Shown here in pieces: positions 1 through 4,321 of a stretch of 64,000 bases of DNA; position 1 is the first letter of the stretch, and every line of letters begins with the position of its first letter. This stretch comes from an uncultured Chloroflexia bacterium. GTDB lineage: Bacteria > Chloroflexota > Limnocylindria > Limnocylindrales > CSP1-4. Location: contig CAVVYR010000008.1 in the NCBI GenBank assembly GCA_963752475.1, positions 352,001-416,000 on the forward strand. Direction: 5' to 3'. The notes under the pieces are model-generated. The model did not search any database. It was given only the letters and a program-made list of their open reading frames with translations, and was not told where the DNA came from. The translations under genes and the position numbers were made by a program.

Positions 1-589
1 CCAAGCCATGAACCTCAGCGAGCCGGAGCTCGAGCAACTCGAATGGGCCGGCCTGCTCCACGACATCGGCAAGATCGGCATCCGCGACTCCGTCCTGCTG
101 AAGCCCGAGAAGCTCAGCCGTGAGGAGCGCATCCTCATGAACGAGCACCCCGCCAAGGGCGAGGAAATCCTCAAGGACGTCGATCAGCTCGCCGCCGAGC
201 GTCCGCTCATCCGCCACCACCACGAGTGGTACAACGGTTCCGGCTATCCCGACCGCCTCATCGGCGACGAGATCCCGCTACTGGCCCGCGTCCTCCATGT
301 CGCTGATGCCTTCGAGGCCATGACCGCGTCGCGCCCCTATCGCCCGATCCCGCTGTCCGGGGCCGAGGCCTTCGAGGAACTGGAGCGCTACGCAGGGATC
401 CAATTCGACCCCGACGTGGTGGAGGCCTTCGGCCGCACCAAGACCGCCCAGGAAGCCTCCGAGCCAATCGACGACGAGCCTGGGGAGCCCGAGCGGCAGC
501 TGACCCCGGTCCCGACGCTGGGACAGGTCGCGTCGGCCCGCGCCAAGGCTACGTCTCTGCCCACGAGCTCCGCTCCCGCCGAACCCTAG
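1..589 (+). CDS. HD-GYP domain phosphodiesterase, C-terminal part (5' truncated by window edge)
   Basis: LLHDIGK, HHEWYNGSGYP and VADAFEAMT..RPYR motifs are intact; the frame is open to the window start. Confidence 0.9.
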   Translation, partial: QAMNLSEPELEQLEWAGLLHDIGKIGIRDSVLLKPEKLSREERILMNEHPAKGEEILKDVDQLAAERPLIRHHHEWYNGSGYPDRLIGDEIPLLARVLHVADAFEAMTASRPYRPIPLSGAEAFEELERYAGIQFDPDVVEAFGRTKTAQEASEPIDDEPGEPERQLTPVPTLGQVASARAKATSLPTSSAPAEP

Positions 590-678
590 TCGGGAGCTTC
601 CGAGCACATGGCGGACCTGCCCCCGCACCTTCCACAGGCTGACCGAGCCTGCGCGACAGCTCCGGGGGAAGCTGCCTG

Positions 679-2658
679 ATGCTCTTCGTCGCCGTCATCC
701 TGGGGCTCGGCGCCGGCCTCCTGGTCGGCGGCCGCCTCAGCAATCTGCTGTCCGCTCAGCTTCGTTTCGGCGGGCTGATCGTCGGCGGCCTGATCCTCCG
801 CGTCGCAACCCAGTGGGGCCTGGACCAGGGCATCGACATCATCGAGTTCCTGCGCGCCCCGCTCTTCGCCGCTTCGTTCGGCTTGCTAGTCGTGGCCCTT
901 TGGCTCAACCGCGGGCAACCGGGTCTGCTGCTGGCGATGGTTGGCATCGGCGCCAACGGCGTGGCAGTCATGATCAACGGCGGCCACATGCCGGTGTGGA
1001 TGCCGGCGGTGGAACTGGCGGGCCTCAGCAGCGCAGACCTCAACCCCGCCTTCCACGTCCTCCTGCCCGATGAGTTGAACGTCGAGTTCCTGCTCATGGC
1101 AGGACCCTTCGGCGACATCGTCCCCATCGCCATCCCCTTCCTCTCCAACGTGATCAGCCTCGGCGACGTCATGCTCGCCGCCGGCGTGGGCTGGTTCCTG
1201 TTCTCGGCCGTCGCTCGTGGCTCGACCGACCCGGACGAGGGCGTGGTCTCCCTCTGGAGCGCCCGGCCGGAGGCCGAGGTCCGAGCCGCCATCTACACCG
1301 ACCGCGCCGGCATCCAGCGGCCCATCGTCGGCGGCTCCAGCATGGGCACCGGCCTTCGCCCGTCGGCGACATCCGGCGCGGAGGCAGCCCTCCCACCCAC
1401 CGACAAGACCGCCGCCGAGCGCATCCGCGAGCACCCATACGTCCGGCTCGCGCGCGACGCCCGCTTCTCCGCGTTCTGGCTGGCCGGCACCATCAGCGTC
1501 TTCGGTGATCGCCTCCACCAGATCGCGCTCGGCGTGATGGTCCTGGCCCTGACGGGCTCGGCCATGCAGACGGGCTTCGTCTTCCTTGCCGCCACGCTGC
1601 CGAACCTGCTGCTCGGCCCCATCGCCGGAACGTTCGTCGACCGCTGGGACCAGAAGCGCGTGTTGGTCGTCAGCGATCTCCTGCGCGCCGGGCTCGTTCT
1701 GGCCCTCCCCTTCGTCGTGGAGATCAACGTCTGGCTGGTCTACCCGGTGGTCTTCATCGTGACCACGGTCAGCATCTTCTTCCGCCCGGCCAAGACGGCG
1801 ATCCTGCCACGCATCGTCCGGCGCGAGGACCTGACGCCGGCCAACGGTGCCATCTGGACGGGCGAGACCCTCGCCGACATCGCGGGCTACCCGCTGGCCG
1901 GCGTGATCGTGGCCTCGCTCGGCCAGAACTTCGCGCTCGCCTTCTGGATCGACTCATTCACCTACATCGTCAGCGCCGTCCTGCTCGTGGGCCTCTCCAT
2001 CCCGCCGGCGGCGCGTGCGGTCGGCCCTCGTGTCTCGGGCGCCGTGGCCGCGTTCGTAGAGGAACTGCGTGAGGGCTGGCACTTCCTGCGCGGCGAGGTG
2101 ACACTCTTCCAGAACACCCTCGTGAGCGTGTTCGCGCAGCTGTCGGTCGGCGCCACGCTCTCACTGATGGTCGTCTATGCCGAGCGCACGCTGTCGGGCG
2201 AGATCATCCCATACCCCGAGAGCTACGCCGTCATCGAGGCAGCCATCGGGATCGGAAACCTGGCAGGCGGCTTCGTCGTCGGCGCCATCGGCGCTCGGCT
2301 ACGCAAGGGCTGGCTGGTCATCAGCGGCTTCGCGGTCATGGGCGTCGCCACCATCGTCCTCGGTCTGACCTCGAACGAACTGCTGGCCGTGGGCGCCGCG
2401 GTGGTCATCGGCATCTTCAACCTGGTCTACGTGATCCCTAGCCAGACGCTCTTCGCCGAGCGCACGCCCGAGGGCATGTTGGGCCGCGTCGTGGCCATCC
2501 GCTCGAGCATCGTGATGGGTGCGCTGACGGGCGCGATGGCCGTCGCTTCCGGCCTGGCCGACACCATCGATGCGGGCGTCATCATCGCCTTCACCGGCGT
2601 GCTCACCGTCCTCGCGGCGGTCGTCGCCGCATGGCTGCCGGCGGTGCGTGACGCCTGA
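679..2658 (+). CDS. DUF5317-like membrane domain fused to an MFS transporter (MFS_3/DHA3-like)
   Basis: N-terminal ~180 aa carry GANGVAVMINGGHMPV, FGDIV and ISLGDV (DUF5317 pattern); after a linker comes a multi-TM MFS with motif-A-like GTFVDRWDQKRVL. Confidence 0.8.
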   Translation: MLFVAVILGLGAGLLVGGRLSNLLSAQLRFGGLIVGGLILRVATQWGLDQGIDIIEFLRAPLFAASFGLLVVALWLNRGQPGLLLAMVGIGANGVAVMINGGHMPVWMPAVELAGLSSADLNPAFHVLLPDELNVEFLLMAGPFGDIVPIAIPFLSNVISLGDVMLAAGVGWFLFSAVARGSTDPDEGVVSLWSARPEAEVRAAIYTDRAGIQRPIVGGSSMGTGLRPSATSGAEAALPPTDKTAAERIREHPYVRLARDARFSAFWLAGTISVFGDRLHQIALGVMVLALTGSAMQTGFVFLAATLPNLLLGPIAGTFVDRWDQKRVLVVSDLLRAGLVLALPFVVEINVWLVYPVVFIVTTVSIFFRPAKTAILPRIVRREDLTPANGAIWTGETLADIAGYPLAGVIVASLGQNFALAFWIDSFTYIVSAVLLVGLSIPPAARAVGPRVSGAVAAFVEELREGWHFLRGEVTLFQNTLVSVFAQLSVGATLSLMVVYAERTLSGEIIPYPESYAVIEAAIGIGNLAGGFVVGAIGARLRKGWLVISGFAVMGVATIVLGLTSNELLAVGAAVVIGIFNLVYVIPSQTLFAERTPEGMLGRVVAIRSSIVMGALTGAMAVASGLADTIDAGVIIAFTGVLTVLAAVVAAWLPAVRDA

Positions 2659-2726: not shown

Positions 2727-3622
2727 ATGACCGACCAGAACAAGCCTGAAGACGCGATACCCGAAGAGGAGATGCCCGAGGAGTCTGTCGACGAGTCCGC
2801 TGAGGCCGAAGAGCCGGCGGAGGATGTCGTCGAGGAGCCGACTGAAGAGGCCGCGGCTGAAGAGGCCCCAGCCCAGACCGAGCCCGTGGCCGGGGCGACG
2901 ACCGCGGCTGCGTCGTCGACATCGACGAGCGGCCCGGAGGAACCTCCGTTCATCGATGATCAGGTCAGCAAGTGGTGGATCGGCATCATCATCGCGGTAT
3001 TCGCGCTGATCTTCGTCGTGGTCGTCCTGTTTGGCCGCGGTGGCTTCCTCGCGGACGTCTTCGAGTCGGACGACCCCACGCCTGAACCGACCATCGAGGC
3101 CACAGCGGAGCCGGAACCGACCGACGCGGAGGAGAGCACCGAACCGGTCGACGCCACCATCGAACCCTCCGAGGCGCCGAGCGAGGAGCCATCGGAAGAG
3201 CCGACGCCCGAGCCGACCGAGGAGCCCGCACCGGAGCCGACGCCCGAGCCCACGCCCGAGCCGACGCCCGAGCCCACGCCCGAGCCCACGCCGGAGCCGA
3301 CCGAGGAGCCCACGCCCGAGCCGACCGAGGAGCCGACCCGGAGCCGACCGAGGAGCCCACGCCGGAGCCGACACCGGAGCCGACGCCCGAGCCCACGCCC
3401 GAGCCGACGCCCGAGCCGACACCGGAGCCCACGCCCGAGCCGACGGAGGAACCGAGCATCGGACCATGCCCGACGATCGACCCTGAGGCCAGCCTCGACC
3501 CTGACGCGAGCGCCGACCCCGAGGCCACGGATGAGCCCGAGGTCCCGTGCTACACCGCAGAACCGTCCGAGGAGCCGGAAGTGTCCGAGGAGCCGGGGCT
3601 CACGGCCGAGCCGGCTGACTGA
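2727..3622 (+). CDS. Acidic single-TM protein with Pro/Thr/Glu (PTPE) repeats; frameshifted near 3337
   Basis: Acidic N-terminus, TM WWIGIIIAVFALIFVVVVLF, then EPTP repeats; one base is missing at about 3337-3340 and the repeats resume in another frame ending ...GPCPTID...VPCYTAEP...AEPAD* (TGA 3620-3622). Confidence 0.75.
3190..3455 (+). repeat. Coding tandem repeat of 12-nt units (gagccsacgccs) encoding EPTP/EPTE
   Basis: Directly visible, roughly 20 degenerate units. Confidence 0.9.
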
Positions 3623-3631
3623 CGTCATGGG

Positions 3632-4321
3632 GTGACCGACGGCTCTCCGCAGCACCAGGATCGCTACGCTGCTGCGCGCGCGGCCATGGTTCGCGACCAG
3701 CTTGAGTCACGTGGTATCCGAGACCGACCCACGCTGGCGGCGATGTCGGTGGTTCCACGGGAGGCCTTCGTGCGCGAGGAGCGTACGATCGATGCCTATG
3801 CCGACAGCCCACTGACCATCGGCCACGGCCAGACCATCTCGCAGCCATACATGGTCGCGCGGATGACGGCCGCCGTCGGGCTGGAGGATGCCGGCTGGCC
3901 TTGGGAGCGCACACGCCCATCGGTTCTGGACGTCGGCACCGGCTCCGGCTACCAAGCCGCGGTCCTGGCCGAGACGGGCGCTCGGGTGACTTCGATCGAG
4001 CGCGATCCCGACCTTGCGGCCTGGGCTCGCCGGAACCTCGCGAGGGCCGGCTACGACGTCGAGGTGCTCATCGGTGATGGCAGCGTCGGCTATCCGGCCC
4101 ACGCACCCTATGCCGCCATCGTCGTGGGCGCGGGTGCGCCCGCCATCCCTGAACCGCTGAAGGATCAGCTGGCCGAGGGCGGGCGGCTGGCGATCCCGGT
4201 CGGCGACCGCCGCTCGCAACGCTTGATGGTCGTCCGGCGGCAAGGTCGAGCTTTCGAGGAACGTGCGGTGGATCGATGCGTCTTCGTGCCGCTCGTCGGC
4301 GCTCACGGCCACGCCGGCTGA
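3632..4321 (+). CDS. pcm: Protein-L-isoaspartate O-methyltransferase
   Basis: VPREAFV, IGHGQTISQPYMVARM, VLDVGTGSGYQAA, QLAEGGRL and FVPLVG motifs. Confidence 0.95.
   Translation: MTDGSPQHQDRYAAARAAMVRDQLESRGIRDRPTLAAMSVVPREAFVREERTIDAYADSPLTIGHGQTISQPYMVARMTAAVGLEDAGWPWERTRPSVLDVGTGSGYQAAVLAETGARVTSIERDPDLAAWARRNLARAGYDVEVLIGDGSVGYPAHAPYAAIVVGAGAPAIPEPLKDQLAEGGRLAIPVGDRRSQRLMVVRRQGRAFEERAVDRCVFVPLVGAHGHAG

Follow-up and report, generated by a model that had tools for sequence, protein, structure and literature searches.

Why would a membrane transporter begin with a DUF5317 domain, and why would its gene stand directly behind a gene for an HD-GYP phosphodiesterase? The question is raised by the open reading frame (ORF) at 679-2658 of a 64,000-nt stretch of DNA from an uncultured Chloroflexia bacterium (the window, G000:C8:352001-416000; coordinates are window positions unless prefixed by a locus label), which joins DUF5317 to a transporter of the major facilitator superfamily (MFS). 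We find that DUF5317, in many phyla and so far without remark, accompanies enzymes that turn over cyclic di-GMP (c-di-GMP), above all MASE9-HD-GYP proteins; GGDEF, EAL and HD-GYP proteins of several kinds are either fused to it or encoded with it in conserved operons. The evidence consists of the domain architecture, the conserved residues, the predicted topology, a gene order that is kept and fusions that arose independently; no mention of DUF5317, PF17248 or IPR035168 was found in the literature searched. We judge it an evenly balanced proposition that c-di-GMP enzymes have in DUF5317 a membrane partner or input module with five transmembrane (TM) helices, and that in this locus it ties the MFS transporter to a MASE9-HD-GYP phosphodiesterase.

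The arrangement itself, first noticed from the letters of the window alone, is confirmed: one ORF joins the two halves, 89 nt behind the HD-GYP gene. The membrane domain of about 180 residues described in the original prediction is present, with the correction that, besides its five predicted helices, it has an insert that contains beta structure. PF17248 (DUF5317) matches the fusion protein at residues 27-174 with 72.1 bits (cut-off 25; profile positions 3-150 of 151) and with 76.8 bits in a genome-wide profile scan, MFS_1 matches residues 267-607 with 96.2 bits (cut-off 33.4), and MFS_3 matches residues 260-651 with 71.7 bits (cut-off 27).

The upstream HD-GYP gene had been called intact, and it is. 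Only its 3’ part lies in the window; looking upstream of the window, we recovered the full gene (L005:9192-10589, 465 aa), which starts about 808 nt before the first window position. In the full protein the HD_5 match covers residues 243-409 (133.6 bits), the HD and GYP motifs read LLHDIGK and HHHEWYNGSGYP in the translation, and residues 1-230 contain about six hydrophobic segments; Galperin and Chou give the HD-GYP hallmark motif as HHExx[DN]GxGYP (10.1101/2021.11.05.467447). Further upstream on the same strand is the gene of a 1141-aa regulator, in which a MalT-like ATPase region comes first (E 1.4e-50) and a winged helix with a BTAD domain forms the C-terminus.

DUF5317 beside c-di-GMP enzymes

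The original prediction proposed a conserved linkage between DUF5317 and HD-GYP or other c-di-GMP genes. Five locus samples and a reciprocal test strongly support such a linkage, which extends further than had been proposed. The family is large, comprising 3,473 clusters at 50% identity (E <= 0.001) in a profile search of 1.84 billion representatives, and PF17248 was found in 117 of 401 Chloroflexota genomes, the unpublished G227 included.

The genome that holds the window has two DUF5317 genes. The second is a standalone gene on contig 6 (L006:7633-8223, 196 aa), whose stop overlaps the start of a gene for a GAF-GAF-GGDEF cyclase (L006:8217-10211) that has no hydrophobic segment. Local hidden Markov models (HMMs) count 2 HD-GYP, 7 GGDEF and 3 EAL domains in this assembly (4.25 Mb, 88.8% complete); because such domains are so few, finding both DUF5317 copies (2/2) beside c-di-GMP genes is not expected by chance. 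All 11 loci retrieved with these two copies likewise have a c-di-GMP enzyme as neighbour: a GGDEF-HD-GYP protein encoded 60-72 nt upstream in five (Actinomycetes/Gaiellales) and a GAF-GAF-GGDEF protein encoded downstream in six (Limnocylindrales), in one of which, L016, Pfam scored GAF only and the GGDEF assignment comes from the local HMM alone.

The linkage is tightest for the fused form. We took 20 DUF5317-MFS fusion genes from 14 genera; every one has a same-strand HD-GYP gene upstream, adjacent in 18, and 16 have a MalT/BTAD regulator gene further upstream. Among the best 30 PF17248 matches in the 401 Chloroflexota genomes, HD-GYP is encoded within 1.5 kb in 17, GGDEF-EAL in one and a BTAD regulator in 14, and in two (L044, L045) a separate MFS_3 gene abuts DUF5317. 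A further 80 loci, all of one Chloroflexota subfamily, have a GGDEF-EAL gene directly upstream in 29 cases; in another 5 the c-di-GMP gene is fused, lies downstream or is on the opposite strand.

The association is not confined to Chloroflexota. Of 80 multi-phylum loci (Bacillota, Thermotogae, Spirochaetes, Armatimonadota, Actinomycetota and others), 42 have a same-strand c-di-GMP enzyme gene within 1.5 kb, a count that becomes 35 of 57 when only loci with full flanks are considered. HD-GYP is encoded directly upstream in 31 of the 80, with a gap of at most 33 nt or an overlap in 29 of these 31. Thirty of the 31 HD-GYP partners were scanned for MASE9, the one in L221, cut by the contig end, being left out; 22 carry the domain, 20 of them above the Pfam cut-off.

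The reciprocal test began from 15 MASE9 matches in 14 of 201 genomes. DUF5317 follows MASE9-HD-GYP directly in 8 of these 15 loci and lies nearby in 2 more; 3 have the HD-GYP gene only, one of them on a 2.3-kb contig, and in the remaining 2 a single protein (L254, L255) carries MASE9, HD-GYP and MFS_3 without DUF5317. Among 14 named control genomes, DUF5317 and MASE9 both match in Thermus thermophilus and Thermotoga maritima and in no others.

Fusions carry the association beyond gene order. DUF5317-GAF-GGDEF is a single polypeptide in P0245, joining in one chain the kind of pair that is split on contig 6, and DUF5317-GAF-GGDEF-EAL occurs in L082 and L094 with an MFS gene 94 nt upstream. That the latter are really two genes is excluded by a 1054-codon frame free of stops, seen in two assemblies. 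EAL-DUF5317 is found in P0397, DUF5317-MFS in many forms (P0393 being a distant one), and the reversed order MFS-DUF5317 in L157 (G106:C3). A further protein, P0255 (673 aa), combines DUF5317 with a partial MFS domain and a Metalloenzyme-superfamily domain, and may be another fusion or an assembly artefact.

A FastTree phylogeny was built from 220 domains: the two own copies and 218 from the 221 loci, three of which were dropped because their matches were short or ambiguous. Context classes are clustered on this tree (29 label changes, compared with 126 for shuffled labels), the DUF5317 domain of the window falls within a 99%-supported clade of fused forms, and the MFS-fused state requires at least 3 changes. 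Since related genomes share labels, the clustering speaks for subfamily structure and not for independent events.

The two halves of the fusion protein

The DUF5317-MFS architecture is common to 113 of 114 longer homologs and is kept down to about 45% identity. The 121 fusion proteins retain the MFS signature positions, and the transporter half of the window protein is of the DHA3 type: its C-terminal 400 residues match MFS_1 and MFS_3, as in the MFS exporters of that family (TIGR00900; relatives of MefA, EntS and LplT), whose model descriptions include no N-terminal DUF5317. The scores against named NCBIfam models all stay below the curated cut-offs, namely 205.6 bits for TIGR00900 (2A0121 H+ antiporter subfamily; cut-off 319.6), 105 for MefA (675), 62 for EntS (324) and 42.5 for LplT (297), so that this half cannot be assigned to a substrate subfamily. 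No sequence relative of it was found in the PDB at E <= 0.001.

In the DUF5317 half, the four motifs pointed out in the original prediction are present in the translation as G89-I-G-A-N93, N100-G-G-H-M-P-V106, F144-G-D146 and I159-S-L-G-D163. An alignment of 46 diverse family members has nine invariant positions (G18, N93, G102, M104, P105, D146, S160, G162 and D163) and eight near-invariant ones (G17, S66, N77, G89, N100, G101, P151 and G169), and in the 121 fusion proteins each of these reaches 98% conservation or more; the window protein has all of N93, G102, M104, P105, D146, S160, G162 and D163. The two aspartates on which the original prediction turned are thus conserved throughout. An AlphaFold2 model made from the 46-sequence alignment (predicted local distance difference test, pLDDT, 92.5; predicted template modelling score, pTM, 0.85) places helices at residues 2-15, 31-49, 59-76, 83-99 and 161-179 with the beta-containing insert spanning 100-160. 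The charges of the loops, taken over all aligned sequences, obey the positive-inside rule for an N-out/C-in topology, from which the conserved polar cluster, made up of N93, N100-G-G-x-M-P, D146 and S160-x-G-D163, is predicted to lie at the outer face of the membrane.

Between the halves runs a poorly conserved linker of roughly 60-80 residues. Within it, residues 201-240 have the lowest column conservation in the 121 fusion proteins (0.45-0.46) and a pLDDT below 50 in the full-length model (pLDDT 83.0, pTM 0.82 overall). A pTM of 0.82 in spite of this disordered linker hints that the DUF5317 and MFS halves may pack against each other.

A promoter and terminator scan returned nothing above shuffled expectation, and the 89-nt spacer at 590-678 has no terminator-like or promoter-like site, which is weak evidence that the HD-GYP and fusion genes are co-transcribed. 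Contigs from an RNA library match parts of both genes, none of them spanning 589-679; DNA carry-over could account for such contigs, and they prove neither transcription nor co-transcription.

How DUF5317 may couple transport to c-di-GMP

Under the reading we favour, the ORF at 679-2658 would be the membrane half of a three-gene module running from the MalT-like/BTAD regulator through the MASE9-type HD-GYP protein to DUF5317-MFS. DUF5317 would contact the membrane domain of the enzyme, or its cytoplasmic GAF domain when fused to one, and would act as an input or adaptor subunit; in the fusion lineage, c-di-GMP hydrolysis would be coupled to the state of the transporter or to some ligand of the outer-leaflet site. 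The contact with the MASE9 protein, the direction of the signal and the ligand or activity of the polar cluster are the parts of this scheme that we infer.

Two kinds of known system resemble it. MASE-type domains, including MASE9, are, like DUF5317, polytopic membrane modules that occur with HD-GYP, GGDEF and EAL outputs in several architectures, and they sit N-terminal to those outputs just as DUF5317 precedes GAF-GGDEF(-EAL). Unlike them, DUF5317 mostly forms a polypeptide of its own, whose gene comes directly after that of the enzyme; it often accompanies a protein already equipped with MASE9, has nine invariant residues including two aspartates, and is repeatedly fused or adjacent to transporters. 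In trigger transporters and transceptors such as DctA-DcuS, BceAB-BceS and UhpC-UhpB, a transporter is tied to a signalling enzyme and its transport state informs signalling. DUF5317-MFS beside MASE9-HD-GYP, and the one-protein MASE9-HD-GYP-MFS form, would be a comparable arrangement; those systems signal through histidine-kinase phosphorylation, whereas the output here would be c-di-GMP hydrolysis, and a dedicated small membrane module would stand between transporter and enzyme.

Several points weigh against this reading. The linkage of DUF5317 to c-di-GMP genes is not universal. Six of the 30 Chloroflexota loci have none of HD-GYP, GGDEF-EAL, BTAD and MFS_3, and 46 of the 80 subfamily loci have no c-di-GMP gene within 4 kb. 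When 17 of these 46 were sampled by Pfam, the opposite strand carried an S9 peptidase gene in 11 and an HPPD-like dioxygenase gene in 9, so the DUF5317 gene stands alone there. In the multi-phylum sample, 14 of the 57 full-flank loci lack any target domain: three have transporter genes directly upstream (MFS and a Na/Ca exchanger in L170 and L173, EamA in L172), L228 has a convergent gene for a MASE9-HisKA_3-HATPase histidine kinase (L228:4329-5930, minus strand), L219 has a convergent HisKA_3 kinase gene with no MASE9 match, and the other nine have unrelated or unannotated neighbours. Two DUF5317-MFS fusions from Actinomycetota metagenome-assembled genomes (L211, L225) have no HD-GYP gene within 1.5 kb. 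Moreover, the loci come from related genomes and are not independent samples, and the local HMMs, which derive from few lineages, would undercount wherever they miss. The N-terminus of the HD-GYP protein at issue scores 19.1 bits against MASE9 (PF20972; E 0.0013), under the cut-off of 24.3; its ortholog in L148 scores 30.8 bits, and a scan of the own genome for MASE9 at E <= 1e-5 gave no match. The MASE9-HD-GYP-MFS proteins that lack DUF5317 imply that it is not needed for coupling a phosphodiesterase to an MFS transporter, and invariant Asp, Asn and Met-Pro are more usual at a site of catalysis or ion binding than in the known MASE-type sensors. Finally, physical interaction of DUF5317 with the HD-GYP protein is itself something we infer. 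A complex prediction for the MASE9 region (residues 1-240) with DUF5317, made without its controls, scored 0.12 against a mark of 0.32, which by the rule of the program speaks neither for nor against binding.

The kinase of L228, together with an adenylate/guanylate cyclase domain protein encoded upstream of a lone DUF5317 (L051:2276-3466, plus strand), suggests that the DUF5317 module may also serve other signalling outputs.

The direction of control may also be the reverse, with DUF5317-MFS as the target and the phosphodiesterase or cyclase governing the transporter either by touching DUF5317 directly or by way of a local c-di-GMP pool. The same gene orders and fusions apply to this alternative, c-di-GMP enzymes are often encoded beside their targets, and transporters recur beside DUF5317 (MFS, Na/Ca exchanger, EamA, AI-2E). 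We nevertheless consider it unlikely, if a serious contender, because DUF5317 is N-terminal to GAF-GGDEF(-EAL) in the fusions, the usual position of an input domain, and because Pfam finds no c-di-GMP-binding domain such as PilZ in the fusion protein.

A distinctly unlikely variant makes DUF5317 a new intramembrane enzyme or ligand-gated module that would form, with MASE9, a two-subunit receptor setting HD-GYP activity. Its outer-leaflet Asp/Asn/Met-Pro site would process or bind a membrane-borne or exported molecule; the receptor would be hard-wired to an MFS transporter in Limnocylindria and linked to an NHLP-clan small protein in other Chloroflexota. If true, this would amount to a transporter-coupled c-di-GMP switch.

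The small protein in question bears on the proposal, made in the original prediction, that the fusion matures and exports a peptide. For the own genome that proposal is not supported, no candidate precursor peptide ORF having been found there; in other Chloroflexota lineages the peptide link stays alive. A conserved protein of about 90 aa is encoded directly after DUF5317 in 12 of 13 BTAD-type clusters examined in those lineages; the multi-phylum sample has it at 13 of its 80 loci. All five copies tested match the NHLP-clan model of the Os1348 family (NF038399) with 25-32 bits and Frankia_peptide (PF14407) with 16-25 bits, both below the cut-offs (40 and 48, respectively), and their tails beyond the conserved domain are about 5-20 variable residues long. 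An HMM of the small protein found nothing in the own genome or in the 20 fusion loci, and the protein stands outside the finding itself. PMC7726476 describes Os1348 as a precursor-like protein of 85 aa encoded beside efflux genes.

The peptide idea had rested on taking DUF5317 for an LspA-like intramembrane aspartic peptidase. In its general form, an intramembrane aspartyl hydrolase, LspA-analogous or new, would process a peptide or lipid with D146 and D163, the MFS half would export or import the product and MASE9-HD-GYP would sense it. Two invariant aspartates 17 positions apart, with invariant Asn, Gly and Pro beside them and both predicted at the outer membrane face, would suit such an enzyme, as would the precursor-like small protein in the loci where it occurs. 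LspA and DUF5317 are both small and polytopic, with two conserved aspartates near the outer face; in both, the last helix comes after a segment that contains beta structure, and a local F-[SN]-x-[GA]-D resemblance can be seen where that helix starts. However, a profile-profile comparison (hhalign) of 46 DUF5317 with 11 LspA sequences from relatives gave a probability of 1.6% (P 0.032 for a single comparison, 95 columns); its only stretch of interest, itself non-significant, pairs F/I-S160-x-G162-D163 at the start of helix 5 with F-N-x-A-D of LspA. The first LspA motif, G-N-x-x-D-R (GGAIGNLIDR in LspA), has no counterpart in DUF5317, whose G89-x-x-x-N93 is followed by no conserved Asp within the next residues, and Peptidase_A8 (PF01252) does not match the whole fusion protein at E <= 0.01. 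Membership of DUF5317 in Peptidase A8 is therefore not supported.

Nor did the fold searches bring support. The model has five helices, against four in LspA, and a Foldseek search of the PDB gave 0 matches at E <= 0.001 (best E 3.2), with no signal peptidase II among the matches listed. VIA-align against 48,161 chains reached a best Z of 8.4 (root-mean-square deviation, rmsd, 7.2 over 99 residues) with generic helical proteins, a value within the program's stated background for helical models, and LspA was not in the best 50; a second look at the 63 chains from Foldseek gave a best Z of 5.4 (rmsd 5.0 over 107 residues), again with no LspA chain among the matches listed. The DUF5317 profile found only unrelated proteins among PDB sequences (best E 0.27), and named ESM Atlas clusters without PF17248 yielded no usable match. 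GxGD aspartyl proteases (presenilin, SPP, prepilin peptidase) carry Y-D and G-x-G-D on adjacent helices. In DUF5317 only S-x-G-D163 resembles either motif, namely the second, no GxGD family of Pfam matches, and the GxGD protease SPPL2a aligns with the model at background level (Z 3.4, rmsd 4.8, 94 residues). With a canonical LspA (115 bits) already encoded in the own genome, and the small protein found neither there nor in the fusion loci and having so short a tail, the specific LspA claim is left unsupported and the broader hydrolase idea keeps a slim chance. Since D146 and D163 are invariant, they may still have a catalytic role, as in some other hydrolase, or an ion-binding one.

It is very unlikely that DUF5317 is a passive membrane anchor or a co-regulated neighbour to which the MFS fusion is incidental. 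The soluble GAF-GAF-GGDEF protein of contig 6 could need an anchor, and many DUF5317 genes stand alone, but a mere anchor would hardly need nine invariant residues, some of them charged or polar and placed in the membrane or close to it, the MASE9-HD-GYP partners are polytopic membrane proteins already, and the fusion is widely kept and arose more than once. The idea that DUF5317 is a small conduit or binding site for ions or metals, one that supplies or senses the metal of HD-GYP, or external cations or pH, takes in the invariant Asp, Asn, Met and Ser at the predicted outer face, the metal dependence of HD-GYP enzymes and the Na/Ca exchanger gene directly upstream in L170 and L173, yet is highly improbable, given that the searches run found no fold or sequence likeness to a known channel or metal transporter and that the GGDEF partners have no such metal centre.

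We therefore return to DUF5317 as a partner of c-di-GMP enzymes. As a habitual companion of MASE9-HD-GYP and related proteins across phyla it acquires a testable role. The paper by Galperin and Chou that described MASE9 (PF20972) leaves open what MASE9-type phosphodiesterases respond to (10.1101/2021.11.05.467447), and DUF5317 offers the c-di-GMP field a handle on these stimuli. That one type of MFS transporter has repeatedly been joined either to DUF5317 or directly to the phosphodiesterase suggests that transport is linked to the turnover of the second messenger. This link can be studied in tractable thermophiles that have both families; Thermus is genetically tractable.

Feature coordinates and neighbouring genes

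Features of the locus and of the comparison loci. Positions without a locus label refer to the window.
Feature	Position	Strand	Description or basis
3’ part of MASE9-like HD-GYP phosphodiesterase gene	1..589	+	last 195 codons and stop; HD_5 119 bits
Intergenic spacer, HD-GYP stop to fusion gene start	590..678	+	89 nt; ORF coordinates
DUF5317-MFS fusion gene	679..2658	+	659 aa, ATG start; ORF and Pfam domains
DUF5317 domain, residues 1-180	679..1218	+	5 predicted TM helices and beta-containing insert, N-out/C-in
DUF5317 Pfam match, residues 27-174	757-1200	+	PF17248
N93 and N100-G-G-x-M-P105 motif	955..993	+	outer end of helix 4; conservation
D146 ... S160-x-G162-D163	1114..1167	+	two invariant Asp 17 residues apart; insert and outer start of helix 5
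Linker, residues 181-259	1219..1455	+	residues 201-240 predicted disordered
MFS transporter domain, residues 260-651	1456..2631	+	DHA3-like/MFS_3 type; MFS_1, MFS_3
MASE9-HD-GYP-MFS_3 proteins	L254:1899-4448; L255:1935-4478		850 aa and 848 aa, both on the minus strand; domains in that order
Small protein of about 90 aa, examples	L020:1908-2258; L028:1920-2270; L029:1983-2294; L047:1928-2245		

Downstream of the fusion gene, genes for a PT-rich membrane protein, PCMT and PIG-L recur in 5, 8 and 3 of the 20 fusion loci, respectively; as they recur in some relatives only, we regard them as local synteny outside the module. The nearest downstream ORF, at 2727-3635 on the plus strand (302 aa), begins 69 nt 3’ of the fusion gene and encodes an acidic N-terminus and one strong hydrophobic segment, followed by long Pro/Glu/Thr (PEPT-like) repeats with a tail that resembles a frame-shifted reading of the repeats. 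Long ORFs are present on both strands across these repeats, and the N-terminal part of the product is found 3’ of 5 of the 20 fusion loci.

Upstream of the window, a terminator-like hairpin with a T-rich tail lies at L005:9269-9294, 77 nt past the TTG from which the HD-GYP gene was read, and the true start may therefore be further downstream; such sites are no commoner here than in shuffled sequences. At L005:3232-5037 is a CobQ/CobB-like amidotransferase ORF whose first 77 residues match a DDE_3 transposase fragment, which may be an ORF-calling artefact or the remnant of an insertion. Among the Chloroflexota loci, L044 and L045 (genomes G328 and G288) have on one strand, in order, the MFS_3 gene, DUF5317, an AI-2E family transporter gene and a metallophosphoesterase gene.

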